Assembly: GCA_964514995.1 (NCBI GenBank)
Contig: CAZETA010000001.1
Span: forward strand, 15,148 to 79,147
Length of the DNA: 64,000 nucleotides
Reading direction: 5' to 3'
Origin: an uncultured Gammaproteobacteria bacterium
GTDB lineage: Bacteria > Patescibacteriota > Patescibacteriia > Magasanikbacterales > GWA2-37-8
Shown: positions 2,061-58,469 of the stretch, in pieces
Position numbering within the stretch: the first letter of the stretch is position 1
Layout: every line of letters begins with the position of its first letter
Program-made: the position numbers and the translations under genes
The notes under the pieces: model-generated
The model's database searches: none
What the model was told of the DNA's origin: nothing
Seen by the model: only the letters and a program-made list of their open reading frames with translations

Positions 2061-3977
2061 ATGTCATTATTTCAATTAAAATCAAAATTCCAACCAGCAG
2101 GGGATCAACCGGAGGCCATTAAAAAATTGATGGCTAGTTTGGAGAAGGGTAATAGGTACCAGGCACTGTTGGGTGTGACTGGATCTGGCAAGACATTTAC
2201 TGTAGCCAATGTCATTAGCCAGTTCGATAAGCCGGCGCTTATCATGGCGCCAAACAAAGCTTTGGCTGCCCAGCTGTATCGTGAGTATAAGAATTTTTTC
2301 CCTGAGAATTCAGTGAATTATTTTGTATCGTACTATGATTATTATCAGCCCGAGGCATATATTCCTACCAGCGACACTTATATCGAGAAGGAATCCATGA
2401 TCAACGAGGAGATAGATCGGCTGCGCCATCAAGCGACGAGTGCGCTCATGTCTCGCAAAGATGTGATCGTGGTCGCGTCCGTCTCTTGTATCTATAATCT
2501 TGGTGTACCGGTCAATTATTTTGACGCGGCTTTACATTTGGAAGTAGGGCAGCCGATGGTGCGGGCGGATTTGATGCGGCAACTTTTAAAATTACAATTT
2601 GCACGTACGCCGGGAGCGGTTGAACGCGGTACATTTCGCGTCCGCGGTGATGTATTTGAAATTGCGCCGGCTTCCGAGAAATTTGTTTATCGTATAGAAA
2701 TAATTAATCAAAAAATTGGGGAAATTGCCGTCACTGATACGCTCACCCGAGTCGTTAAGGAGAAGCCGACGGAAGCGGTGATTTTTCCGGTCAAGCACTT
2801 TGTTTCTTCTGAACCGCAAATAAAAGAAGCGCTCAAAGAAATTAAAGTCGAATTAAAAGATCAGTTGGCATATTTTAAGAAAAAAGAATTATACCTGGAG
2901 GCAGAACGTCTGGAACGCAGAACGAGATATGATATGGAAATGATTCAGACGCTGGGTTTTTGTCATGGCATCGAAAATTATTCCCGTCATTTGGCTGGCA
3001 AGCTAGCTGGCGATGCGCCCGATACGTTGCTTTCATATTTCCCTTGGAAAGAAGATAAAAATGGCGTGAAGAGTCCGGACTTTCTGACTATTATGGACGA
3101 ATCGCATATCGGACTGCCGCAAGTGCGCGGCATGTATGCGGGTGATCGGAGCCGCAAAGAAACCCTAGTGCAATTCGGATGGCGGTTGCCCTCAGCCTTG
3201 GATAATCGACCGCTCAAGTTCGATGAATTTGAGAAACGGGTCGGCCAGGTAGTCTTTACCTCCGCTACGCCTGGAGATTTCGAGATGCAGCATTCATCTG
3301 TGATAGCGGAACAGGTGATTCGTCCGACTGGCCTTATCGATCCGCCGATTGAGGTCAGGCCTGTATTTGATACAAAAACTAATCGCGGACAGGTTGATGA
3401 TATTATTAAAGAAATAGAAAAAATTGTGGCTCTGGGAGAGCGGGCGATTATCAATGTCCTGACCAAAAAAATGGCTGAGGAGTTATCGGAATTTTTGAAA
3501 CAAAAGAACTTTTCCGTTAATTATTTACATTCGGATGTGAAGACGTTGCAACGCACGGAAATTCTTATGGATTTCAGGCAGGGCAAATTCAATGTGCTAA
3601 TCGGTGTTAATTTGTTGCGTGAAGGCCTGGATTTACCTGAGGTGACACTCGTCGCCATCATGGATGCGGACAGAGAAGGCTTTTTGCGCAGCGAGGAATC
3701 GCTCATGCAGACCATGGGTCGTGCCGCGAGAAATGTGAAAGGCAGCGTCATTCTCTATGCTGATACCATTACTCGGTCCATGAGAAATGCCATGAAAGAA
3801 GTGGAGCGAAGAAGAAAATTACAGATTGCCTACAATGAAAAACATGGCATTACGCCGCAGACGACCCATAAAGACATAGAACAGTTTTTGGATATCCCGG
3901 AAGCAACTGAAGCGGAAATTCAGTCTCAAGGTAAACGACAAATGCCGATGTTAAAAAATAAAAAGAGTAAAAAGTAA
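2061..3977 (+). CDS. uvrB: Excinuclease ABC subunit B.
   Basis: N-terminus MSLFQLKSKFQPAGDQPEAIKKL is like E. coli UvrB. Walker A GVTGSGKT, helicase motifs, and a C-terminal UvrB/UvrC interaction region. Start moved to the ATG at 2061 (the track start at 1992 is TTG). Confidence 0.9.
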   Translation: MSLFQLKSKFQPAGDQPEAIKKLMASLEKGNRYQALLGVTGSGKTFTVANVISQFDKPALIMAPNKALAAQLYREYKNFFPENSVNYFVSYYDYYQPEAYIPTSDTYIEKESMINEEIDRLRHQATSALMSRKDVIVVASVSCIYNLGVPVNYFDAALHLEVGQPMVRADLMRQLLKLQFARTPGAVERGTFRVRGDVFEIAPASEKFVYRIEIINQKIGEIAVTDTLTRVVKEKPTEAVIFPVKHFVSSEPQIKEALKEIKVELKDQLAYFKKKELYLEAERLERRTRYDMEMIQTLGFCHGIENYSRHLAGKLAGDAPDTLLSYFPWKEDKNGVKSPDFLTIMDESHIGLPQVRGMYAGDRSRKETLVQFGWRLPSALDNRPLKFDEFEKRVGQVVFTSATPGDFEMQHSSVIAEQVIRPTGLIDPPIEVRPVFDTKTNRGQVDDIIKEIEKIVALGERAIINVLTKKMAEELSEFLKQKNFSVNYLHSDVKTLQRTEILMDFRQGKFNVLIGVNLLREGLDLPEVTLVAIMDADREGFLRSEESLMQTMGRAARNVKGSVILYADTITRSMRNAMKEVERRRKLQIAYNEKHGITPQTTHKDIEQFLDIPEATEAEIQSQGKRQMPMLKNKKSKK

Positions 3978-3986
3978 ATTAATTCT

Positions 3987-6482
3987 ATGGAAGATAAAAT
4001 CGTAATAAAAAAAGCCAGAGTACATAATCTCAAAAACGTATCTTTGGAAATTCCAAAAAATAAGATGACGGTATTTACCGGTGTGTCTGGCAGTGGCAAG
4101 TCATCGCTGGCTTTTGATACCATTTTTGCCGAGGGGCAGCGTCGGTATATAGAATCGTTGTCTCCGTATGCTCGCCAGTTTTTGGGACAAATGGAGCGCG
4201 CGGATGTCGACGAGATCACTGGTTTGTCACCGGCGATTGCCATTGGTCAGAAAGCGTTGAGCCATAATCCTCGATCCATTGTCGGAACCCTGACAGAAAT
4301 TTACGATTATTTCCGTGTGCTCTATGCCAGACTCGGTGAAGTCTTTTGTCCTCAGTGTGGACTCAAAATTGAAAAATTATCACCCGAAGAAATGATCGAT
4401 ATTATTTTGGGAATGGCGAAGGAATTAAAGGAACCGACCGTGACCGTATTATCGCCAGTCGTGCGCGGTCGTAAAGGTGAGTACTACCAGATGTTGTATG
4501 ATTTTCTAAATGAAGGTTTTGAGCAGGCGCGGGTGGACGGCACAGTACATTCACTCCATGATCGGATAGAATTGTCGCGGCACAAGGCTCACAATATTGA
4601 TGTGGTTATTGACCGAGTAATGACGAGCGACGAGACCCGGTTGTTTGAAGCGGTAGAAAGCGCCTTGCAGCACAGCAAGGGACTCGTCACGGTTTTGTTT
4701 GGCGAAAAAACAAAAAATCCGACTGAGCGTCTACTCTCCAGCCATTGGTCTTGTCCGGCTGATGGGTTTTCTTTTCCAGAAGTTGAGCCAAGATTATTCT
4801 CATTCAACAGTCCGGCGGGGGCGTGTGTTGCTTGTGGCGGCTTAGGTAAGGTGGAAGCATTTAGTAAGGAAATTTGTCCTGAGTGCCAAGGCAAACGACT
4901 TAAGCCGGAATCTTTGTCTGTACGGATTAAAAATAAAAATATTTATGAGGTTTCTTCGCTGACCATTGAAGAAGGATATGAGTTTTTCAAGGAGTATGGC
5001 AAGAAACTCAACGAACGCCAGATGATGATCGCGCACAATGTTATTAAAGAAATTAATGATCGCTATAAATTTTTGTTGGAAGTTGGTTTGGATTATATTA
5101 CGCTGACACGTGAAGCGCATACCTTGTCTGGCGGGGAAGCACAGAGAATTCGGCTGGCTTCTCAGATCGGCTCGCATCTTTCAAACACGCTATATGTGCT
5201 CGATGAGCCGACCATTGGTTTGCATGAACGCGATACGGAACGCCTCGTCAATACTTTGAAATCATTACGTGATGAAAATAATACGGTGATTATTGTGGAG
5301 CACGATGAACGGACGATCAAAGAATCCGATTATTTGGTGGATCTTGGCCCGATGGCTGGTGAACTGGGCGGGGAAGTGGTCTACAGCGGACCAACCAAAG
5401 ATATTACCAAAGAAAAAAATAAATCATTGACGCTAGAGTATTTAACCGGAGAAGTCGAGATAGAAGTGCCGAAAAAACGCCGTTGGAAAGAGACAGAAGA
5501 AATTTCTATTGTGGGCGCGCGGGCCAACAATCTGAAAAATATCAATGTCAAAATTCCGCTGCGAAAATTTGTGGTAATTTCCGGTGTTTCCGGGGGTGGT
5601 AAATCATCGCTTCTGTACGATGTCCTCTATGAAAATATTGCCAGAATAAAAAGCAGATTTAAAAAATTGGAGGATGTGAGCAAGATTACGGGGACTGAAT
5701 ATGTCGACAAAGCGGTGATTGTTGACCAGTCACCAATTGGCCGTACACCAAGATCAAATCCTGCTACCTATACTGGTATATTTACCCCGATTCGTGATTT
5801 TTATGCGAGTTTGGAAGAAGCAAGAATAAGAGGGTATACGCATTCTCGTTTTTCTTTTAACCGTCCTGGTGGGCGCTGTGAGTCATGTGAAGGTGCAGGA
5901 TTTAACACGATTGAAATGCATTTCATGCCAGCGGTAGAAGTGCCGTGTGAAGTCTGTCATGGCAAACGGTTTAGCCGTGAGACCTTGCAAGTCAAACACA
6001 AGAACAAAAGTATTGCTGATGTCTTGGAGATGACGATTAGTGAAGCCATTAAATTTTTTGAGCATATTTATCAAATTACTGATAAACTAAAGGTATTACA
6101 AGAAGTTGGGCTTGGTTATCTACGTTTGGGACAAAGTGCTACTACCTTGTCTGGTGGTGAGGCGCAGCGCATCAAGCTGGCTCGCGAACTCACAGTCCCG
6201 CTAGGAAAGAAAAATTTGTATTTGCTTGATGAGCCGACGGTTGGTCTGCATTACCACGATATTGAATTGCTTTTGGCAGTACTCAACAAGCTGGTAGAAA
6301 AGGGAAATTCGGTCGTGGTGATTGAGCATAATTTGCATATGATCAAGTGTGCGGATTATATTATAGATATGGGTCCAGAGGGTGGCGCCAAAGGGGGAGT
6401 CGTTGTCGCCAAAGGCACGCCCGAAGAAGTAGGAGATAATCCTAATTCATATACGGGTATGTATTTGAAGGAGTATCTTTAA
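3987..6482 (+). CDS. uvrA: Excinuclease ABC subunit A, a short 831-aa form.
   Basis: N-terminus ...ARVHNLKNVSLEIPKNKMTVFTGVSGSGKSS is like E. coli UvrA. Two ABC modules (LSGGEAQR twice), Zn-finger Cys pairs, and a 10-nt gap after uvrB. Confidence 0.9.
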   Translation: MEDKIVIKKARVHNLKNVSLEIPKNKMTVFTGVSGSGKSSLAFDTIFAEGQRRYIESLSPYARQFLGQMERADVDEITGLSPAIAIGQKALSHNPRSIVGTLTEIYDYFRVLYARLGEVFCPQCGLKIEKLSPEEMIDIILGMAKELKEPTVTVLSPVVRGRKGEYYQMLYDFLNEGFEQARVDGTVHSLHDRIELSRHKAHNIDVVIDRVMTSDETRLFEAVESALQHSKGLVTVLFGEKTKNPTERLLSSHWSCPADGFSFPEVEPRLFSFNSPAGACVACGGLGKVEAFSKEICPECQGKRLKPESLSVRIKNKNIYEVSSLTIEEGYEFFKEYGKKLNERQMMIAHNVIKEINDRYKFLLEVGLDYITLTREAHTLSGGEAQRIRLASQIGSHLSNTLYVLDEPTIGLHERDTERLVNTLKSLRDENNTVIIVEHDERTIKESDYLVDLGPMAGELGGEVVYSGPTKDITKEKNKSLTLEYLTGEVEIEVPKKRRWKETEEISIVGARANNLKNINVKIPLRKFVVISGVSGGGKSSLLYDVLYENIARIKSRFKKLEDVSKITGTEYVDKAVIVDQSPIGRTPRSNPATYTGIFTPIRDFYASLEEARIRGYTHSRFSFNRPGGRCESCEGAGFNTIEMHFMPAVEVPCEVCHGKRFSRETLQVKHKNKSIADVLEMTISEAIKFFEHIYQITDKLKVLQEVGLGYLRLGQSATTLSGGEAQRIKLARELTVPLGKKNLYLLDEPTVGLHYHDIELLLAVLNKLVEKGNSVVVIEHNLHMIKCADYIIDMGPEGGAKGGVVVAKGTPEEVGDNPNSYTGMYLKEYL

Positions 6483-35314: not shown

Positions 35315-38300
35315 ATGAAAACTATGTCAGACTTTGTTCACCTCCATAACCACTCCCATTATTCTCTGCTTGATGCGCTGCCAAAAGTAGACGAGCTGGT
35401 TGGTCGTGCCAAAAAATTAGGTTACACTGCTTTGGCTCTGACTGACCACGGCAATATGTATGGCGCCATCGAATTCTATGAGGCATGTCAGAAAGAAGGT
35501 ATCAAACCGATTATCGGTGTAGAAGTGTATATCGCTGCGGGTAGTCATTTGGAAAAAAATCGAGAAGAGAATACCTATCACCTGGTGCTTCTCGCTCTCA
35601 ATTATGCGGGCTATAAAAATTTAATGAAGCTCATTTCTATTTCGCAGCTGGAAGGATTCACCGATAAGCCGCGGGTGGATAAAGAATTATTAAAACAATA
35701 TCACGAAGGAGTAGTGGCGTTATCAGGTTGTCTTGAAGGTGAGATACCGTGGATTTTGCGCAAAGAAGATAATTATGCGAAGTCAAAAAAAGTCGCTTTG
35801 GAGTACCAAGATATTTTTGGAATCGGAAATTTTTATTTAGAGATGATGGATTTACCGGCGCTAGAAGGACAGATGGATGTGAATACTAAATTGGCGCAGT
35901 TGTCTGCTGAGACAGGCATACCGCTCATCGTCACTCGTGATACGCACTATCTCGAGCCTCAGGACGCCGAGGCGCAGGATGTCCTTACCTGTATTCGCGA
36001 CGGCCAAACTCTGGAGAACGATAGTCGTAACAGTATGAGCGCGGTTGATTATTCTTTCTGCGCGCCCAAAGATATCATCAGTCGTTTCAAACACATTCCG
36101 CAGGCTATAGAAAACACCGTGAAGTTGGCAGAGCGAGTGGATTTGAAATTGGAATTAAATAAATGGCATTTTCCGGATATCAAAATTCCGGATGGGAAAA
36201 CCGCGGACGAGTATTTGCGGGAGCAGGTGTATGAAAAATTGCCGAAACGGATCGAGATGACTGAAGAGGTAAAGAAACGCGCTGATTACGAGCTAGATAT
36301 TATTGCCAAGAAGGGCTATTCGCCATATTTTTTGACCGTAGCTGATTATATCAATTACGCTCGGGATAATGGCATTATGGTGACCACTCGCGGCTCGGCG
36401 GCTGGCTCTGTTGTTTCCTTTGCTATGGGTATTGTCATGGACAATCCGTTGTATTTTAAGTTGCCGTTTGAGCGCTTCCTGAATCCATTTCGTCCGAGTC
36501 CTCCCGATATTGACGGCGATTTTGCCGACGATAGGCGCGATGAGATGATTGCTTATGTGACCAAAAAATATGGCGCCGATAAAGTCGCGCAGATCATTAC
36601 CTTTGGTACGATGGCGGCGCGAGGCGCGGTGCGCGATGTGGGCCGAGCGCTTGGCTATTCATATTCGTTTTGTGATCAGATTTCCAAGCTGATTCCATTT
36701 GGCGCCCAAGGGTTTCAGATGACGATTGCTAAAGCGTTAACCCTTGAACCAGAACTTAAAAAGTTATATGACAAGAACGCAGAGGTGAAACGGCTGCTTG
36801 ATCTCGCGCAAAAAGTAGAGGGTTGCGCCCGGCATACCTCTATTCACGCGGCGGGCGTGGTGATTTCCCCTACACCGCTTACGGATTTTACTCCCGTGCA
36901 ACTTGAAACCGGCGGGGATAAAACCGTCACTCAATATGAAATGCATGCGGTAGAGGCGGCCGGAGTGCTTAAGATGGATTTTTTGGGCATCCGCAATCTT
37001 TCTATCCTTGGTAACGCTATCGAGATTATCGAGAAAACAACCGGCCAAAAAATAAATGTCTACAATTTGTATCCATGGAATGACAAAAAAACATATGAGA
37101 TGTTGGCGCGCGGAGAAACAGTCGGTGTCTTTCAGATGTCCAGTTCCGGCATGACTAGATACTTAAAAGAACTGAAGCCCAGCTCTATTTTTGATATCAT
37201 GGCCATGGTGGCCCTGTTTCGTCCGGGGCCTATGGATTCAATCCCGAGCTATATTGAGCGTCAGCAAAATCCTCAGACGATTGAGTATGAAGATCCGCGC
37301 ATGAAAGACTATCTCGATCAATCTCTGGGGTTGATTGTGTACCAGGATGACGTGCTTCTGACCGCTATCAATTTAGCCGGATACAATTGGGAAGAAGCCG
37401 ACAAATTCCGTAAGGCCATGGGTAAAAAAATTCCCGAAGAAATGGCTAAGCAGAAAGAGAAATTTTATAAAGGCGCTAAGGAGTTCGGAAAATTGTCTCA
37501 AGAAAAAATCGATCGCTTGTGGGAACGCATCGAGCCGTTTGCGGCGTATGGGTTCAATAAAGCGCATGCGGCCAGCTATGCGGTCGTGGCGTATCAGACG
37601 GCATATCTCAAAGCAAATTTTCCGGTGCAATATATGACGGCGGTACTTATCGCAGAAAGTGGTGATATTGATAAAGTCCCCGAAATCATCCATGAATGCG
37701 AGCGCATGGGTGTAAAAGTCTTGCCGCCCGATATCAATGAAAGTTTCAAGAGTTTTGCCATGATCCCCGGTACAGAGGGTGAGCAGGCCCATATTCGGTT
37801 TGGCTTAAACGGTATTAAAAATCTTGGTGAAAACATTGCTGAAGCAATCTATCGTGAGCGCAAGGCAAATGGGAAGTACAAAGACCTGCAAGACTTATTA
37901 ACCAGAGTGACAGATAAAGATCTCAATAAGAAATCAATAGAGAGTTTGATCAAATGCGGCGCTTTGGATGGTTTTGGTCATGATCGAGGGGTGTTGCTCG
38001 CCAATATTGATAACCTGCTTTCGTTTGTAAAACAAACTCGCGATGATCGACAGGTTTCATCCCAGCATTCATTGTTTAGTGGTACGAGCATCGATACAGT
38101 GGTCAAATTAAAGTTGGCAGAAGCGGTAAATGCGACCGAAGCGGAAAAATTAACTTGGGAGAAAGAATTATTGGGATTGTATATTACTTCTCATCCATTT
38201 AGCTTTTATCAGGAACAGATGAAAGCAGCCTTGGTGCCCCTCAAAGATCTATCCAGTCAAGCCCGCAACCAATGGGTAGTGGTGGGCGGCATGATTGATT

Positions 38301-38788
38301 CTACAAAGAAAAAAATTACCCGTAGTGGCAAAGCGATGATGTTTGTAAAAATTTTGGATACCACTAGCAGTTTGGAGTTATTGGTCTTTCCAAAAACCTA
38401 CGAAACCACAGCCGATGTCTGGGTGGAAGGCAGGCCTGTGTGTGTGATTGGTCGTACTTCGGAGGAAGAAGGAGATGATAAATTGTTTGTAGAAAAGGCC
38501 TACGTACTAGGCAAAGATAATGTCGGTATGCTGGCACATCAGCTGTCTATGGGGAAAAGCGCAGCACCTGTAAAAGAATCTCCGCAAGAAAAATTGCTTG
38601 ATACATTTGATATCTTCTTAACGCAAGAGCAAATAAAAAATAATGCCGAGGTGATCAAGCAAATATTGGCAAAATATCCAGGAGAAAAGAAGGTGGTTTT
38701 GCGTGTCGGAGAAAAAAGTATCAACACTTCCTTTGTCGTTTCTGGCGAACCTGGCTTAGAAGAAGAATTGAGAACAATTATTGAGTAG
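35315..38788 (+). CDS. dnaE: DNA polymerase III alpha subunit.
   Basis: PHP domain (HLHNHSHYSLLD), polymerase core, OB fold. The true start may be the ATG at 35324 (MSDFVHLHNHS). Confidence 0.9.
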   Translation: MKTMSDFVHLHNHSHYSLLDALPKVDELVGRAKKLGYTALALTDHGNMYGAIEFYEACQKEGIKPIIGVEVYIAAGSHLEKNREENTYHLVLLALNYAGYKNLMKLISISQLEGFTDKPRVDKELLKQYHEGVVALSGCLEGEIPWILRKEDNYAKSKKVALEYQDIFGIGNFYLEMMDLPALEGQMDVNTKLAQLSAETGIPLIVTRDTHYLEPQDAEAQDVLTCIRDGQTLENDSRNSMSAVDYSFCAPKDIISRFKHIPQAIENTVKLAERVDLKLELNKWHFPDIKIPDGKTADEYLREQVYEKLPKRIEMTEEVKKRADYELDIIAKKGYSPYFLTVADYINYARDNGIMVTTRGSAAGSVVSFAMGIVMDNPLYFKLPFERFLNPFRPSPPDIDGDFADDRRDEMIAYVTKKYGADKVAQIITFGTMAARGAVRDVGRALGYSYSFCDQISKLIPFGAQGFQMTIAKALTLEPELKKLYDKNAEVKRLLDLAQKVEGCARHTSIHAAGVVISPTPLTDFTPVQLETGGDKTVTQYEMHAVEAAGVLKMDFLGIRNLSILGNAIEIIEKTTGQKINVYNLYPWNDKKTYEMLARGETVGVFQMSSSGMTRYLKELKPSSIFDIMAMVALFRPGPMDSIPSYIERQQNPQTIEYEDPRMKDYLDQSLGLIVYQDDVLLTAINLAGYNWEEADKFRKAMGKKIPEEMAKQKEKFYKGAKEFGKLSQEKIDRLWERIEPFAAYGFNKAHAASYAVVAYQTAYLKANFPVQYMTAVLIAESGDIDKVPEIIHECERMGVKVLPPDINESFKSFAMIPGTEGEQAHIRFGLNGIKNLGENIAEAIYRERKANGKYKDLQDLLTRVTDKDLNKKSIESLIKCGALDGFGHDRGVLLANIDNLLSFVKQTRDDRQVSSQHSLFSGTSIDTVVKLKLAEAVNATEAEKLTWEKELLGLYITSHPFSFYQEQMKAALVPLKDLSSQARNQWVVVGGMIDSTKKKITRSGKAMMFVKILDTTSSLELLVFPKTYETTADVWVEGRPVCVIGRTSEEEGDDKLFVEKAYVLGKDNVGMLAHQLSMGKSAAPVKESPQEKLLDTFDIFLTQEQIKNNAEVIKQILAKYPGEKKVVLRVGEKSINTSFVVSGEPGLEEELRTIIE

Positions 38789-39917
38789 TATCTACTTTCC
38801 AATTTGGGTCAACCATAATTTTTTCCCAAGCAGTGAATTCTTTTTTGAGAGCATGATTATAGCTGGCCGCCGCGATCATAGCGCCGTTATCCATGGCATA
38901 TTTTAATTCTGGAATTTGTACACTCATCTCAGGAAATCTGGCATTGATTTCTTTTTGTAAAGTTTCGCGAAGTTTTTTATTGGCACTGACACCGCCGCCA
39001 AGAATGACGGTTTTTGGTTTATACTCTTCCGCGGCTTTGATGGTTTTTGTGACCAGCACATCAATTATGGTCTGTTCAAAGCTGGCGCAAAAATCATTGA
39101 TTGAAACGCCACCGGTTGTTTGGTTGTCATTCTGAGGGAGAGAATCGACCGAAGAATCCCTTTCGTTTGTGTTTAAGGGATCCTTCGCGTTGCTCAGGAT
39201 GACGCCAGAAATTTGATTGTCCCGCAACCAATACAGTGCCGAAGTTTTCAGTCCCGAAAAACTAAAGTTATAATCGCCGCTATCAAGCATGGGGCGAGGG
39301 AAGTGGATGGCTTTGGTATTTCCTTCCAGAGCTAATTTGGATATTTGCGGTCCGCCTGGATACGGAAGTCCAAGGAGTTTGGCAACTTTATCAAAACATT
39401 CTCCGGCCGCATCGTCTCTGGTTGAGCCAAGAATTTTATACTGGCCATGATTCTTCATTAGAATTAATTCCGTATGTCCGCCACTGACGATCAGAGCGAG
39501 AGCGGGAAATTGTATTGCAGGTTGAACAAGTTTTGCATTTTCTAATTGAGGGTTTACCACTTGGGTTGAATAGATATGTCCCTCGATATGGTTGGTGGCC
39601 ACCAGCGGTATATTCCAGGCATAAGAGAGGGTGCGAGCAGCTTCTACACCAACAAGTAATCCGGTAATGAGTCCCGGTCCGGCAGTCACCGCAATCACGT
39701 CTGGCCGCGGTTGATTCTCAAGGACTGCTTCAATAAGCGGTACTATTTTTTCCGCATGCATACGGCCGGCGATTTCCGGTACCACGCCGCCATATTTTTT
39801 GTGCACATCAATTTGGGAGGCGGTTTTTTCTGACACCACAAAAAATCCATTATCAGAACAGTCTAATAAGGCCACGGATGTATCGTCACAGGATGATTCG
39901 ATGCCGAGAATTAACAT
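38778..39917 (-). CDS. tsaD: tRNA N6-adenosine threonylcarbamoyltransferase TsaD, carrying an about 30-aa in-frame insertion.
   Basis: ILGIESSCDDTSVAL N-terminus, HMEGH metal site, and GGVSAN near the C-terminus. Confidence 0.85.
   Translation of the reverse strand: MLILGIESSCDDTSVALLDCSDNGFFVVSEKTASQIDVHKKYGGVVPEIAGRMHAEKIVPLIEAVLENQPRPDVIAVTAGPGLITGLLVGVEAARTLSYAWNIPLVATNHIEGHIYSTQVVNPQLENAKLVQPAIQFPALALIVSGGHTELILMKNHGQYKILGSTRDDAAGECFDKVAKLLGLPYPGGPQISKLALEGNTKAIHFPRPMLDSGDYNFSFSGLKTSALYWLRDNQISGVILSNAKDPLNTNERDSSVDSLPQNDNQTTGGVSINDFCASFEQTIIDVLVTKTIKAAEEYKPKTVILGGGVSANKKLRETLQKEINARFPEMSVQIPELKYAMDNGAMIAAASYNHALKKEFTAWEKIMVDPNWKVDTTQ
39126..39203. repeat. Imperfect 78-nt palindromic element inside the tsaD coding sequence.
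   Basis: Outer arms gtcattctgag / ctcaggatgac (11 bp, one G-U). Inner arms gaagaatccctt / aagggatccttc (11 of 12). 12-nt central loop. Confidence 0.5.
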
Positions 39918-40132: not shown

Positions 40133-40206
40133 TGTCAGGGTAGCTCAGTTGGTTAGAGCACGGGATTCATAACCCCGAGGTCGAGAGTTCGAATCTCTCC
40201 CCTGAC
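40133..40206 (+). tRNA. tRNA with CAU anticodon (elongator Met or lysidine-type Ile2).
   Basis: GTCAGGGTAGCTCAGTTGGTTAGAGCACGGGATTCATAACCCCGAGGTCGAGAGTTCGAATCTCTCCCCTGACA. Perfect acceptor and T stems, anticodon loop TTCATAA. G1-C72 paired, so not initiator-like. Confidence 0.8.
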
Positions 40207-40245
40207 ACAGTTGTCAAAAACCGCCATTTATTTTAATAATTTCTA

Positions 40246-40281: not shown

Positions 40282-40648
40282 ATATATTCTTTAGGTTGCT
40301 AGATAGTTAACTTCGTTAAAACGGAGTTTACGAATAAGTGAATAAATGCACTTTGATACTACTATCAAGCAGGGGATTTGCCAAGAGGTTTGACTAGTTG
40401 AAATATGGTTAAATATGCAACTCTATTGACAAATTAGTGTTTTTATGATATAGTAATTCGATTACTTTAACTTAAAGTAAGGAAAAAATAGACGTGCTAA
40501 GAAGTAACAATTGCCCTTCCCACATAGAGAGTAGTGTTCTAAGCTAATAATACTCTTTAGCTGGGAGGAGCGATAAACCACCGTCTGTTTGTTGGCCTGC
40601 TGGGCTGGCAAAGATGATGGAGAAGCAACTCAAAGGAGGATTGATTCC

Positions 40649-40879
40649 ATGAGCACGCCCAGTAAGCCCCCGGTGGTCGCGGCGATGCCGGTCACCGACG
40701 AGATGTCCCACGGACCCGACCGCGGTCGGGATGCCGAGTTCCCGACCGACAAGCTGCCGCCCTTCGACTGGTCGAAGGTGGAGTACGACCGCTGGATCGA
40801 GCGGCGCGGCCCGCGTTGCTCGACGTGCGGCGGGACGCTGGGGCATGACCGCCCCTTCAGCAGCAACTGCAGCTGCTGA
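40649..40879 (+). CDS. Hypothetical 76-aa Cys-motif protein (possible zinc ribbon) in a GC-rich islet.
   Basis: ggagga RBS 8 nt upstream of the ATG. C-terminal C..C...14..C.C motif (CSTCGG....NCSC). Local GC content is far above the flanks. Confidence 0.35.
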   Translation: MSTPSKPPVVAAMPVTDEMSHGPDRGRDAEFPTDKLPPFDWSKVEYDRWIERRGPRCSTCGGTLGHDRPFSSNCSC

Positions 40880-40985
40880 CCATGTTTCGGGCCAGTTGGC
40901 TGCAAAGCTGACTGGACTGGAACTAAAGCGTAGGCAGATCGACGACGACTCGGCCGCACCGTGCGACCGCGGCGGCTCACAGACA

Positions 40986-41048
40986 CTTCATCCGAGCCGT
41001 TCGCACAACCTAATAATATTATTGTTACGTTGTGTGAGCTCGGATGAA
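40986..41048 (+). other. Long hairpin with a 12-bp outer stem (cttcatccgagc / gctcggatgaag), an inner cacaac/gttgtg stem and an AT-rich loop. It ends the GC-rich islet.
   Basis: Inverted repeat read directly from the sequence. Confidence 0.5.
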
Positions 41049-41445: not shown

Positions 41446-41835
41446 TCAGAAATGGAGCAACCTATTAAAGTCTTTGCCTCCCTTATACTGGTACTTGTGT
41501 AGTAGGGTGTCTTTTATTGCCTGAGTACAAGATAACTTTCCGTAGGCATCAACCCATGTGCTGATCGTTTTAGAATCAATGACATACATATTTTTATCAG
41601 GCGGTATCAGAATAAAATAATAGTTTTCTCGTGGCTCAAACTTTCCGACATTAAAGATCCATCTCGGTAGCCTGCCTTTTATCTGAATATCTATATGCCT
41701 GCCATCTTGTTGTCGGATAATACAATCAATGCCTTTGTCATCTACTATCGGAACATAGACATCAAAATTATGGCTCAATAGCTCTGATACAACTCTATAC
41801 TCACACGATTTTCCAAATGATAATGATTCTGGCAT
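41446..41835 (-). CDS. Small candidate PD-(D/E)xK-fold nuclease-like protein (130 aa).
   Basis: Ordered E (GKSCEYRVVSELL) ... D (FDVYVPIVDDKGIDCII) ... QxK (HIDIQIKG) pattern, as in Hjc/Mrr-type small nucleases. The start is placed at the second Met because the upstream in-frame codons cover a highly structured region. Confidence 0.4.
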   Translation of the reverse strand: MPESLSFGKSCEYRVVSELLSHNFDVYVPIVDDKGIDCIIRQQDGRHIDIQIKGRLPRWIFNVGKFEPRENYYFILIPPDKNMYVIDSKTISTWVDAYGKLSCTQAIKDTLLHKYQYKGGKDFNRLLHF

Positions 41836-41856
41836 ACAAACAAAAACGGCCCCTTT

Positions 41857-41950
41857 ATCCGGGCGGCAACCTTTCGGTCGCCCTACCACCTTTCGGAGGT
41901 AGACTACGTCAGCAGAACCCGGTCAAAAAGACCGTTTTACTGACGTAGAT
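41857..41950 (-). other. Structured leader-like region: two adjacent hairpins with cc-tttc-gg loops, then a 9-bp TGACGT-containing stem enclosing a smaller hairpin.
   Basis: gggcggc aacctttcg gtcgccc; ctaccacc tttc ggaggtag; ctacgtcag ...cggtc aaaaa gaccg... ctgacgtag. Confidence 0.4.
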
Positions 41951-42199: not shown

Positions 42200-43114
42200 G
42201 TGCGATTTATGAAAAAGATTAGAGTTTGTTATAGAAGTAATAATAAGATCACTCCTTTATTTATAATAGGCTACTACTCAGATGGCGGATTTTTTATTAA
42301 GGATTTAATAAAAAGTTACGGTGAGAATTATCTAGTATCGAAAACCTCTATTCCGAGAAATTTAAAACCTGCTGAATTTACTAATTCCAAAATTAATAAA
42401 AAAAATACTTGGCACACAAGTTTTATTAAGCCAAAGTTTTCACATCATGGTAATGGGTTTGCTCAGATATCTGAAACCGGTCTCAGGAGTGGTGTTTTTA
42501 AGACGGTAGGATTTTTTAAAGGGGTTGCTATTAAGAGTATAAATTTATTTTTACGCAATAACGATGGCGGCCCTCTTTACGCATTTAATATTTGGGGTCT
42601 TGATAATATGGAGTTTAACCAAGATGTAAAAGGGGACGATATCATCTTAGATGACGCGGACTTTTTTGATTTTAGGCCTCCTTATACAAATACTCCAGGT
42701 TGTTTTATATTCGAATTTTTCTATCTTCCTAATCAAGCAAAAGGTCACATAAATAAAGATGGTAGAATATGGCTTCGTTGGGACGGGTATGGTGACTATA
42801 TTGCCAGGTATATACCTGAAGAGGAGTATAGTCCAGGGTTTCTAGCAATCTCATGTAAAAAAGATGTGCTCGGGAGTGGGTTTAATCAATGGCCGTTTGG
42901 TCTATCTATGAGCGGTTGTCCGGGGTTTCCTCGTCTATTAGATTTTTTTCGTTCTTATAAGCAAATAAATGTTATCTACCCTGTACGATCTTTTGGTAGT
43001 GAAGTACCTTTTAATGCGAGAGAATTATTATTTACAAAGTTTTGGCACACAGTTTCTATTCTAGATGATCGAGTTTCAAAAATAATTAATGCATTGGTTG
43101 CAAAAATTAAATAG
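42200..43114 (+). CDS. Hypothetical protein (304 aa), island gene.
   Basis: Clean ORF with a TATAAT box about 15 nt upstream. No recognisable motif. Very AT-rich codon usage. Confidence 0.45.
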   Translation: MRFMKKIRVCYRSNNKITPLFIIGYYSDGGFFIKDLIKSYGENYLVSKTSIPRNLKPAEFTNSKINKKNTWHTSFIKPKFSHHGNGFAQISETGLRSGVFKTVGFFKGVAIKSINLFLRNNDGGPLYAFNIWGLDNMEFNQDVKGDDIILDDADFFDFRPPYTNTPGCFIFEFFYLPNQAKGHINKDGRIWLRWDGYGDYIARYIPEEEYSPGFLAISCKKDVLGSGFNQWPFGLSMSGCPGFPRLLDFFRSYKQINVIYPVRSFGSEVPFNARELLFTKFWHTVSILDDRVSKIINALVAKIK

Positions 43115-43123
43115 TTTTATAAT

Positions 43124-44071
43124 ATGCAATTGTCTATTCGGTATATAGATACGAACATTAAAAGGTATGATGGCTTTCATAAAGGCACCTCTTCTTTATG
43201 GGGTGTAAGATTAGCGAAAGGTTACGGGGTATTACCTATAAAGCACGAGCATGATCTAAATCCACAAAATAAAAATTTTGATTATTCTGATAAACAGATT
43301 GCACTAGCAAAAAATATCAGAATAGGTTTATATCAAAGAATACTACAGCCAGATGATATAAAGAAAGCGTTGTATTATAGTCCAGTTACTCTAGAATTTG
43401 AAATATTTAGTTCTATATATACCGACCACGACGGTGTAATTTCTATGCCAGATCTTGAGGAGGATAAAAAAGAAGAATTAGCACACGCTGTTATGGTATA
43501 TGGACACGATAAGAATGGCTATAAGATATTCAATCATTGGGCTAATTGGGGCAATAATGGTAAGGGGTATGTTTCCTTAGATTATTTAAAAAAGTACTTT
43601 ATTACGGCATTTGCATCTGATCTTGTGATAAAGATGCATGACACTCGTTTATGTTTAGAAAAGAAAAAGGTCAGGATAAAAAACCTAGACTATTACTTTT
43701 CATTTTATGAGACCCCTTCTTTTTTGGGTGACCATAAACCTATTTTTAATATTGAGATTTCTGATAGTAAAAATGAATTAGCGGGTTGGATACATTTTAT
43801 ATTTAACAATGACAGTGTAGAAATTTTAGACATTTTTGTTCTAGCTGAGTTTAGACATAATGGGCTTGGTTCTTTTTTGCTAAATAAGATGATTGAATAT
43901 ACAAAGCCTAAAAATGTTACTGGTTTCATTTCCGGCTATGATCTAGTAAATGATAGAGATGAGATTGTAAAGGATTTCCTAATAAAGAATGGTTTTACAA
44001 TAGCCCGTGATACTAGTGGATTTAGGGATTGTAAATATAAAATTTTAAAAATAGATAATTGTAAATGGTAG
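43124..44071 (+). CDS. Fusion of an N-terminal papain-like (C1-like) domain with a C-terminal GNAT acetyltransferase fold.
   Basis: HAVMVYGHDKNGYKIFNHWANWGNNGKGYVSLDY matches the C1 His / Asn-Ser-Trp-Gly..Trp-Gly..Gly-Tyr region. The N-terminal KGTSSLWGV sits where QGxCGSCWAF is expected, but without Cys. C-terminal FRHNGLGSFLLNKM is a GNAT motif A. Confidence 0.5.
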   Translation: MQLSIRYIDTNIKRYDGFHKGTSSLWGVRLAKGYGVLPIKHEHDLNPQNKNFDYSDKQIALAKNIRIGLYQRILQPDDIKKALYYSPVTLEFEIFSSIYTDHDGVISMPDLEEDKKEELAHAVMVYGHDKNGYKIFNHWANWGNNGKGYVSLDYLKKYFITAFASDLVIKMHDTRLCLEKKKVRIKNLDYYFSFYETPSFLGDHKPIFNIEISDSKNELAGWIHFIFNNDSVEILDIFVLAEFRHNGLGSFLLNKMIEYTKPKNVTGFISGYDLVNDRDEIVKDFLIKNGFTIARDTSGFRDCKYKILKIDNCKW

Positions 44072-44166
44072 GTCAAAGTTTACCACTCGTAATCAGTGGT
44101 TCATAAATTACCTTGCAAAACCTGCATCTATCTGTCATCATATGTATGTAATGATGATATAAATAT

Positions 44167-44631
44167 ATGCTCGATCGATCAAGAGTTACACATACGGTAG
44201 GGGAAACCATTGTGGAGCCAAAAATACCCAAAGAGATTACAAAACATATAGACTTCAGCTTAAATGTTGACGCGCCTCATTTTGAACCTGGTGATATAGC
44301 CAGACAGATTGAAGAACTTGCCGTAGCAGATGGCCTTTCTCGTACTGATTTTGAATATATACAGAATGAATTTGATGAGGGAAATAATCTAATTTCTTTG
44401 TCTGCAGTAGTTAAATCTAGTGCTGCTAAACGGCAGAACTGTGGAGAGATTGTATATAGGTATATGGTTGAAGGAGATCATGGTGAAGATTGGGGAGTTA
44501 TAAATCATACTTGTATTTTCAGGTTTTCATCAAAAGTAGAGACGCCTGATGAAATGACAGATATAGAGATTATCTTGGTGTACGATTCGAAAAGAAAGGT
44601 ATGGGTAAAAAAAGGCCAAAGCTTGCAGTAA
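44167..44631 (+). CDS. Hypothetical protein (154 aa), island gene.
   Basis: Clean ORF. No recognisable motif. Confidence 0.45.
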   Translation: MLDRSRVTHTVGETIVEPKIPKEITKHIDFSLNVDAPHFEPGDIARQIEELAVADGLSRTDFEYIQNEFDEGNNLISLSAVVKSSAAKRQNCGEIVYRYMVEGDHGEDWGVINHTCIFRFSSKVETPDEMTDIEIILVYDSKRKVWVKKGQSLQ

Positions 44632-58086: not shown

Positions 58087-58335
58087 ATATTTATAAATAT
58101 AATCTCGCTCGCTCGCCCCGCTAAGCGGGGACTCACTCACTTCGATTATACACAAAAATTTCTCAAAATCTTGAGTTGTTACCGAGAAGAATATTGAAGA
58201 AGATGAAGGGCTTTATTTGCCGGAAAAATACAAAAATCCAGACAGTTTTGTCTGTGTTGCGCTTTGTTTGAAGAGTTTTTGTAGTTTGGCTGGCATAGCC
58301 TGTGTCTAAGCTTTTTTGTGCTGATCTTAGCAGAT

Positions 58336-58443
58336 TCTTCGTTCAAAAGTTCGGTAATTCCCAAAGATCATTAATTATTAAAACTGGCTATATGATAGCA
58401 TCTTTGGGTTTGGGTGTCAAACATCAGAATTAATTGTCATTCT
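58336..58443. other. About 108-nt nested palindromic element: outer cttcgttca / tgaacgaag, inner cccaaagat / atctttggg, AT-rich centre.
   Basis: Inverted repeats read directly. Shares the 11-mer tgtcattctga with the palindrome inside tsaD. Confidence 0.4.
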
Positions 58444-58469
58444 GAACGAAGTAAAGAGCACCCGTCTGG

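Follow-up and report, generated by a model that had tools for sequence, protein, structure and literature searches.

An in-frame palindrome in tsaD of a Patescibacteria bacterium is probably an inverted dimer of REP-type hairpin repeats

Palindromic repeats that lie in frame within protein-coding genes are a textbook oddity of Rickettsia genomes. Here we describe a 78-nt palindrome inside tsaD, the gene of a near-universal tRNA-modification enzyme, in a 64-kb stretch of contig CAZETA010000001.1 (the window) from a bacterium of the Candidate Phyla Radiation (CPR, Patescibacteria). We conclude, with a probability of about 0.85, that the palindrome is an inverted dimer of two hairpin repeats of the repetitive extragenic palindrome (REP) type. 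It would belong to a widespread, non-autonomous kind of REP with a CGTC or TGTC tag, sitting in a permissive surface loop of TsaD and being read through by translation.

The Rickettsia palindromic elements (RPEs) measured about 150 bp as first reported (Ogata et al., 2000, as summarized in PMC10969869 and PMC3733652). A second group, the CGTC REPs, is defined by an unpaired CGTC tag (often TGTC), a stem of 8-9 bp that starts A/T, a loop of 4-5 nt and the 3-nt tail CCA (Di Nocera, De Gregorio & Rocco, 2013, BMC Genomics 14:522; PMC3733652). These repeats occur mostly as inverted dimers, often heterodimers, with copies in known genes; no associated transposase is described for them, and they are reported from five phyla. 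RPE-4 and RPE-6 of Rickettsia were assigned to the CGTC REPs by the same authors. REP doublets (REPINs) and GTAG REPs, on the other hand, are mobilized by REP-associated tyrosine transposases (RAYTs; Bertels & Rainey, 2011; Nunvar et al., 2010, PMC2817692). At the structural level, d(GCGNAGC) and d(GCGNNAGC) form unusually stable DNA mini-hairpins (Hirao et al., reviewed in PMC13037366).

The palindrome in tsaD and its two arms

The tsaD product matches Pfam family PF00814, for which 8000 homologues were retrieved, and solved TsaD structures at around E=1e-75, including T. maritima TsaD 6NAK (E=1.7e-75). Metal-binding residues H110, H114 and D343 are in invariant columns of an alignment with 40 relatives. 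The palindrome occupies positions 39126-39203, and its sense strand (39203 to 39126) reads GTCATCCTGAGCAACGCGAAGGATCCC-TTAAACACAAACGAAA-GGGATTCTTCGGTCGATTCTCTCCCTCAGAATGAC. Its first base is the first of codon V239 and its last base the third of D264, which makes exactly 26 codons, none of them a stop. The predicted RNA fold of a 101-nt stretch around it reaches -32.1 kcal/mol, compared with -17.1 +/- 2.9 for 200 shuffled sequences (z=-5.1), none of which was as stable. A dimer of the form GTCATNNN...NNNATGAC occurs a single time in the window, as the tsaD element.

The insert lies between the LKT helix, which ends in ...YWLRDN, and the helix that starts with INDFCASFEQ. An earlier, sequence-only reading of this DNA had described an imperfect palindrome of this length between these two helices, and both statements are borne out. 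It had also put the extra protein segment at about 30 residues; the segment exists, but its length is closer to 34 residues, of which the palindrome encodes 26. This follows from the comparison with 6NAK, in which two residues take the place of query residues 233-268, and with loop-less CPR homologues such as P0014 (340 aa), which have 4-5 residues at the site.

The palindrome resolves into two arms of the same design (Table 1). An nhmmer profile built from 189 distinct arm sequences, all taken from other genomes, matched each of them and found no other significant site in the 64 kb. These matches support the earlier suggestion of a repeated palindromic element. A generic regular expression, GTC-ATNNN...NNNAT, was non-specific (5 matches in the window versus 6.2 in shuffles), and the profile was used instead. 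The unpaired tags are CGTC at 39204-39201 on the sense strand and TGTC at 39125-39128 on the plus strand. Twenty-five nucleotides of arm 1 are identical to arms at two other loci, one in a metagenome-assembled genome (MAG) of Lachnospiraceae (L038) and one at L142. The apex of this arm, GCAACGC, is a non-canonical variant of the mini-hairpin motif, and the minimum-free-energy DNA fold of the arm is the expected hairpin. In arm 2 the consensus apical GC..GC is replaced by GA..TC with pairing kept, as judged against the long-variant copies L016, L017 and L030. We also considered a hammerhead-like reading of the CUGA...GAA segments, which was rejected by inspection, as the core does not have the UGA of CUGAUGA.

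The arms can be translated in two ways, with GTC-ATC-CTG giving VIL and GT-CAT-CCT-GAG giving HPE, while the third frame contains TGA. Because each arm thus has two stop-free frames of three, a frame through the whole element can stay open; with a short arm 1 and a long arm 2, the element reaches 78 nt (3 x 26). In an AlphaFold2 model based on a 40-sequence alignment, the mean predicted local distance difference test score (pLDDT) was 85; helices 221-233 and 273-299 were confident and residues 242-268 scored below 50. The 26-residue insert is therefore predicted to be a disordered loop between two confident helices. Together with related alleles that do not have the element, this fits the earlier proposal that it is tolerated as a surface loop.

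Table 1. Positions of the tsaD element, its parts and related features in the window
Feature	Position	Strand	Basis
tsaD coding sequence, 379 aa, intact, catalytic residues conserved	38778..39917	-	Open reading frame list, PF00814, PDB TsaD matches
Probable inverted dimer of REP-type arms, 78 nt, encoding V239-D264 (VILSNAKDPLNTNERDSSVDSLPQND)	39126..39203	-	Sequence, fold z=-5.1, only dimer of its kind in the window
Arm 1: CGTC tag, ATCCT-GA-GC-AAC-GC-GA-AGGAT, tail CCC	39177..39204	- (tsaD sense strand)	nhmmer E=2e-6
Arm 2, long variant: TGTC tag, ATTCT-GA-GG-GA-GA-GAA-TC-GA-CC-GA-AGAAT, tail CCC	39125..39160	+	nhmmer E=2e-6
Inter-arm spacer, 16 nt, plus strand TTTCGTTTGTGTTTAA	39161..39176		Sequence; spacers vary across the family
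Variable loop B tract, 121 nt: the element with 19 nt of 5' flank and 24 nt of 3' flank	39102..39222	-	Alignment A2 and sliding-window identity against L001 (P0002)
Probable decayed solo arm, intergenic (TGTCATTCTGAACGAAGTAAAGAGCACC)	58435..58462	+	23/28 positions match the arm at the tsaD 3' end of L001; best of 20 shuffles, 20
Possible second relic, 3' part of an arm (reverse complement CTTTTGAACGAAGAATCTG)	58331..58350	-	nhmmer E=0.9, not significant alone; 12-nt inverted repeat with 58440-58451

The repeat family across genomes

Copies in other genomes were collected with the pattern GTCATYCTGAG-N30-60-CTCAGRATGAC, which finds dimers by design. It matched at least 120 stretches of GTDB species-representative genomes and 26 viral contigs, some of these with tandem arrays. 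The matches listed include Acidobacteriota, Chloroflexota, Patescibacteria, Bacillota, Bacteroidota, Planctomycetota, Verrucomicrobiota and Nitrospirota, and further Gemmatimonadota, Omnitrophota, Armatimonadota, Cyanobacteria and several proteobacterial classes; the Patescibacteria among them are Komeilibacteria, Magasanikbacteria, Saccharibacteria and Parcubacteria. Cultured isolates (Flavobacterium swingsii, Spirosoma profusum and Mucilaginibacter) are also among these matches, so the family is not an artefact of MAGs.

The copies have a common plan, i.e., (T/C)GTC, ATYCT, GA, a short stem capped by GNA or GNNA, GA, AGRAT and C(T/C)C, followed by a variable spacer and the mirror image. Arms are 28-36 nt long. 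The base 5' of GTC is mostly T (224 arms), with C, G and A in 30, 12 and 4 arms, respectively. Tails are CTC (118), CTG (39), CTT (36), CTA (35), CCC (18) or CCA (4), and the apical loop is GAA in 45, GCA in 41, GGA in 14 and GTA in 13 arms, next to GNNA forms.

The variable positions of this plan indicate which parts of the element are held together by pairing. Within arms, the Y of ATYCT pairs with the R of AGRAT in 283 of 287 cases, and the non-Watson-Crick exceptions are C.A and T.G, twice each. Equal numbers of both exceptions point to a constraint acting on DNA rather than on RNA. Between the two arms of a dimer, the Y positions are independent (CC 56, CT 40, TC 38, TT 25), indicating that arm types combine at random and that heterodimers are common. 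Apical stems show many compensatory variants, and longer arms have gained a GG/CC plus GA/GA module or other fully compensated stems. The conserved structural unit is the arm, not the long palindrome.

These pairing patterns bear on an alternative that the sequence-only reading had raised, namely a structured RNA element in the tsaD mRNA. Such a functional hairpin might be an RNase III or RNase E site, a translational pause or a regulatory element, with the protein loop as by-product. The strong sense-strand fold is what such a hairpin would show, and Di Nocera et al. argue that many REPs act as RNA (PMC3733652). However, the pairs between the arms do not covary across the family, the wobble tolerance typical of RNA is missing within the arms, and the two arms have their stable, G.A-rich form on opposite strands. 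The hairpin is also lacking in near-identical and related tsaD alleles. A search of Rfam gave no match at the gathering threshold, and up to E=10 only chance-level ones (FinP, 14.7 bits; MIR1515, 13 bits). A role as RNA is thus highly improbable, and we prefer to read the palindrome as two DNA-level hairpin arms.

A classical miniature inverted-repeat transposable element (MITE), as had been suggested before, would derive by deletion from an insertion sequence (IS), have inverted repeats at its ends, be mobilized in trans by the transposase of that IS and be flanked by a target-site duplication. The small size, the many copies across genomes and the 11-nt terminal inverted repeats (GTCATYCTGAG / CTCAGRATGAC) are in accord with this. 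On the other hand, direct repeats of 2-8 nt flank 165 copies at chance frequency only, with none at the tsaD copy. Clustering of the open reading frames (ORFs) within 1.5 kb of 164 copies returned, as recurrent groups, housekeeping families and pseudo-ORFs made of translated repeat, but no transposase. Likewise, no IS or transposase carrying these ends was found in 146 loci (the loci only, not whole genomes), and no RAYT-like gene adjoined the copies in the neighbour clustering, in which no RAYT profile search was included. Furthermore, the arms behave as independent hairpin modules that combine at random and also exist as solo arms, which is the anatomy of REPs and REPINs rather than of IS ends. 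The MITE label is consequently dropped, as we give it very little chance of being correct, in favour of an inverted dimer of REP-type arms.

Genes for small GIY-YIG nucleases often begin where such elements end, and this link was also examined. By jackhmmer on all locus ORFs such a gene was adjacent to the element in 1 of 146 loci, and the link was rejected as a general one. The one locus is L051, where a GIY-YIG ORF (3876-4391) directly follows an element.

How often the family enters coding sequence was assessed from the same copies, 19 out of 165 lying inside long ORFs. About 6% of all combinations of copy, strand and phase are both a multiple of three in length and stop-free; given many insertion events, survivors in permissive loops are to be expected. 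In-frame copies were found in LepA/EF4 of a Candidatus Magasanikbacteria MAG (L096 1071-1147), where the insert lies between the switch-I region and DTPGH (...VRMKYT[CHPERSEGSRPQSQLGSSVGSPPQND]STYTLNLIDTPGH), in a 1006-aa PurL-like ORF of an Omnitrophota MAG (L077 4460-4533) and in a TatD-like ORF of a Saccharibacteria MAG (L099 2646-2719). Two IMG/VR viral contigs carry tandem arrays, with five dimers in L017 (8546-8969) and four in L024 (9003-9429); the start-to-start spacing is 78-156 nt, and arms are conserved while spacers vary.

The relatives L003 and L152 have one further dimer and two solo arms in 13-21 kb. At L003 14708-14845 (equal to L152 10708-10845), the spacer of a CTGAG-type dimer contains a complete canonical dimer. 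The nested copy reads TGTC-ATTCCCAA-CTTG-ATTGGGAAT-CCA ... TGG-ATTTCCGC-TTTG-GCGGGAAT-GACA. CTGAG-type and canonical REP types coexist in this lineage, and the nesting suggests that elements insert into or beside existing elements. A literature search with the arm sequence and with encoded peptides (CTGAGCGAAGCGAAG, HPERSEG, LRFAQND and others) returned only unrelated primer and protein matches. No paper connecting REPs with Patescibacteria was found in the literature searched.

Variation of TsaD loops and other features of the window

The site of the insert, loop B, was compared in 35 CPR tsaD loci for which DNA was available, with loop length counted from GLKT to ASFE. It ranges from 26 to 104 residues. 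Loops are either absent, of a conserved 47-residue type (LSAM..NP...AG.FGQ...PT) or longer, and among the longer ones nine loci have a GTCAT...ATGAC dimer and two more have the ATGAC end alone. At least four arm subfamilies are represented among the dimers (CTGAG, GCGAG/GCGAC, ATTCC-GAC and ATCCC-GAC), with the stems ATCCT/AGGAT (the window), ATTGC/GCAAT, ATTCC/GGAAT and ATCCC/GGGAT, all read in the frame VI... / ...(N/D)D. Peptide signatures of translated repeats at loop A or B were present in 21 of the 120 best homologues.

Close relatives can differ completely at this loop. Proteins P0001 and P0002 have a core identity of 96.6%, yet P0002 has a loop of the 47-residue type. Similarly, the DNA of P0004 is about 90% identical to that of P0005 and P0006 over the whole gene but about 32% identical at loop B, where the subfamilies differ. 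Judged from these alignments, loop B turns over rapidly compared with how far the protein cores have diverged. P0004, which is not the sister of the window protein, is nevertheless laid out in the same way (4 + 26 + 8 codons), with a right arm that is nearly identical and a left arm that is unrecognizable.

The comparison with the sister contig L001, which encodes P0002, is the most detailed. Its tsaD DNA is 100% identical to that of the window in codons 51-225 and 99% in codons 276-300, but unrelated across 39102-39222, and there are five substitutions in the 19 nt directly 5' of the element. On sequence grounds, a clean insertion into an allele like that of L001 explains this pattern less well than recombination that swapped the complete loop allele, or than a chimeric metagenome contig. 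The earlier statement that an element had landed in frame holds for the frame; the comparison does not show a clean landing, as the whole 121-nt tract differs, flanks of the element included. We also asked if the 47-type loop (LSAM..NPLN..AG.WGQ) is an older, decayed copy. Some resemblance exists, in NPLN, in a CCCGCT/AGCGGG stem and in GTCAGAAGAAC against CTCAGAATGAC, but this was seen in L001 only and not in L153, and it is not significant. At its tsaD 3' end and at the contig end, L001 has a solo arm (1702-1729). A 94-aa GIY-YIG gene (335-619) overlaps its tsaD start and is unrelated to the element.

Another alternative is that the insert is a domesticated, functional protein segment, e.g., a CPR-specific interaction surface of TsaD, and that the palindromic DNA is a leftover of its origin. 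Loop B is indeed expanded in most CPR TsaDs, and a non-palindromic version of 21 residues (LSAM..NP...AG.FGQ...PT) recurs in conserved form in lineages that are 58-70% identical to the query in the best segment. Yet the element-encoded peptides are wholly different between close relatives (VILSNAKDP..., VIPTESQDE..., VIATPTGS...) and absent in others, and the segment is predicted to be disordered. In addition, the window arms are near the family consensus, which indicates constraint at the DNA level or recent origin rather than constraint on the peptide. Domestication appears quite improbable to us, and the element-encoded peptide is most likely a selfish or neutral passenger without function.

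The element would be an artefact if the MAG were wrongly assembled here, or if a palindrome had arisen by chance where the loop is variable; repeats often break or confuse assemblies, and L001 itself ends inside an arm. Against this, tsaD keeps an open reading frame, assemblies made independently (L003, L152 and others) have the same architecture, the family is present in isolate genomes, and none of the 200 shuffles folded as well as the native sequence. The likelihood of an artefact is close to negligible.

Two other loops of CPR TsaD are variable in length as well in alignment A1: loop A follows HIYS..., and loop C follows ...LEN-QP. Loop A contains translated-repeat peptides in several homologues (e.g., VVIASHSEAIP...APRND and NVILNNVKDPSRSYKRDSSAKPQND), and that of P0004 has a solo arm (L003 10368-10403). 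On the 5' side of tsaD in two relatives, a gene for a large serine recombinase with Resolvase and Recombinase domains is found about 200 nt away in L002 (362-2062), and the end of such a gene lies about 3 kb away in L233 (1-33). This flank of tsaD looks like an integration region of variable content; in the window it holds tRNA-Glu, tRNA-Met and a GC-rich island.

This island (40620-40980) has 65-69% GC, compared with 29-45% in neighbouring stretches, and gave no Rfam match. It contains a 76-codon ORF (40649-40879, plus strand) that has AAGGAGG as its ribosome-binding site and is rich in Cys at the C-terminus (...RCSTCGGTLGHDRPFSSNCSC); a palindrome follows at 40988-41047. The island is located between tRNA-Met (40134-40208) and a LOOT RNA (Rfam RF03000; 41865-41988, minus strand; 84.1 bits with a gathering score of 46.4) that overlaps the start of a 147-aa ORF (41446-41889, minus strand); beyond it are ORFs of 26-33% GC (42200-44631). 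It looks like foreign DNA beside tRNA genes. On its other side, tsaD is convergent with dnaE (35315-38788, plus strand, 1157 aa), with an 11-nt overlap of the 3' ends at 38778-38788.

The window contains further possible members of the repeat family in an intergenic region. The sequence-only reading had linked the 11-mer TGTCATTCTGA of the tsaD palindrome to an intergenic element at 58336-58443. The 11-mer does recur, at 58435-58445, and corresponds to the family tag and stem start, but the link is weak, since the profile match there is not significant (E=0.6); a relic is plausible. Positions 58435-58462 are probably a decayed solo arm. The region 58331-58462 as a whole is read, with low confidence, as a decayed relic of this repeat family. 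At 58360-58408 it contains an inner hairpin of 9 bp (CCCAAAGAT/ATCTTTGGG); the sequence ahead of the hairpin, GTAATTCCCAAAG, is similar to the TGTCATTCCCAA REP found in L003. The region 58331-58462 looks like a nest of decayed REP-type repeats.

Comparison with known repeat systems

Several observations weigh against reading the tsaD palindrome as a dimer of CGTC/TGTC-tagged REPs. The fit to described CGTC REPs is imperfect, as the family loop GNA has 3 nt (5 when the closing C-G pair is counted) instead of 4-5 nt, and the family tail is CYC, CCC in both window arms, instead of CCA (PMC3733652). Although the arm hairpin is the folding optimum, nearest-neighbour DNA folding makes it no stabler than shuffled sequences (z from -0.7 to +0.4). 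The energy model omits sheared G.A pairs and mini-hairpins, and the case for the arm hairpin therefore rests on covariation and on the published mini-hairpin data. The 64-kb window contains only one intact dimer with one or two relics, and no mobilizing enzyme was found among the ORFs neighbouring 164 copies or by jackhmmer on all locus ORFs. Finally, the comparison with L001 points to exchange of loop alleles and offers no datable insertion; L001, a metagenome contig of 1.7 kb, may itself be a chimera.

A sequence of events that would account for the element can nevertheless be proposed. The arms would act as single-stranded DNA hairpins, with five Watson-Crick pairs, tandem G.A pairs and a GCGNAGC-type mini-hairpin at the apex. 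By analogy with GTAG REPs and RAYT, a strand-specific enzyme may copy or move them. In tsaD, insertions would survive only at a few tolerant loops, and loop alleles may then spread between related lineages by homologous recombination. Read-through in the window would have been made possible by a length that is a multiple of three, a start at a codon boundary (GTC-ATC, Val-Ile) and a stop-free frame.

A more general model is offered tentatively, and we consider it doubtful as a whole. According to this model, the arm (T/C)GTC-ATYCT-GA-[stem-GNA-stem]-GA-AGRAT would be a strand-specific single-stranded DNA hairpin module that is near-identical across most bacterial phyla and spread by a widely shared enzyme. 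In CPR, it would be a general source of lineage-specific insertions in essential proteins, with loops remodelled by insertion, nesting and allele swapping.

For the annotation of genomes, the results imply that predicted proteins with strings such as VILSEAKD..., HPERSEGS..., ...LRFAQND and ...ALRMT contain translated repeat DNA there and not protein motifs. A single TsaD loop that serves as a recurrent landing and exchange site for several repeat subfamilies also provides a concrete mechanism for some of the unexplained protein insertions of CPR bacteria. With its arm conservation across phyla, covariation within arms and mini-hairpin apex, the family is a good test case for how CGTC-type REPs, for which no transposase is known, are copied.

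Among described systems, this kind of event has precedents in Rickettsia RPEs and intragenic REPs. What is new is the lineage of the host (CPR), the repeated use and exchange of a single TsaD loop, and the picture of the family, i.e., phylum-wide conservation, covariation within arms only and the mini-hairpin apex. The tsaD element extends a process of the Rickettsia type to a CPR bacterium. Like RPEs, which are palindromic repeats in frame in unrelated housekeeping genes and tolerated as extra peptide, it lies in frame in a conserved gene, encodes a predicted disordered insert and leaves the catalytic residues intact. The hosts differ, however, being Rickettsia in one case and CPR bacteria in the other, dozens of in-frame copies compare with one in the window, and the likeness drawn here is one of described features (PMC10969869).

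REPINs and GTAG REPs resemble the family in being inverted doublets of hairpin REPs with a conserved unpaired 5' tetranucleotide, and some enterobacterial GTAG REPs have an apical GCGNAGC. In contrast, the family tag is (T/C)GTC instead of GTAG, and the family sequence is conserved across phyla rather than species-specific. The DNA mini-hairpins are the same motif as the apex of the family arm, in which all four N bases are used and GNNA forms occur too (PMC13037366), but they are a structural motif and not a genetic element.

The described CGTC REPs share with the family the tag, the stem start of A-T followed by T-A, a short 3' tail, inverted dimers and heterodimers, intragenic VI...D peptides and the lack of a transposase. 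The stem differs, since the family has tandem G.A mismatches and a GCGNAGC-type triloop where the CGTC REPs have a fully paired stem of 8-9 bp; counted from A-T and T-A, ATYCT-GA-GC with GC-GA-AGRAT gives nine positions, two of which are G.A. Peptides of the CTGAG type (VILS, HPER, AQND and others) do not appear among the intragenic copies listed by Di Nocera et al. (PMC3733652). The family also spans far more phyla than the five reported for CGTC REPs, and these include the CPR.

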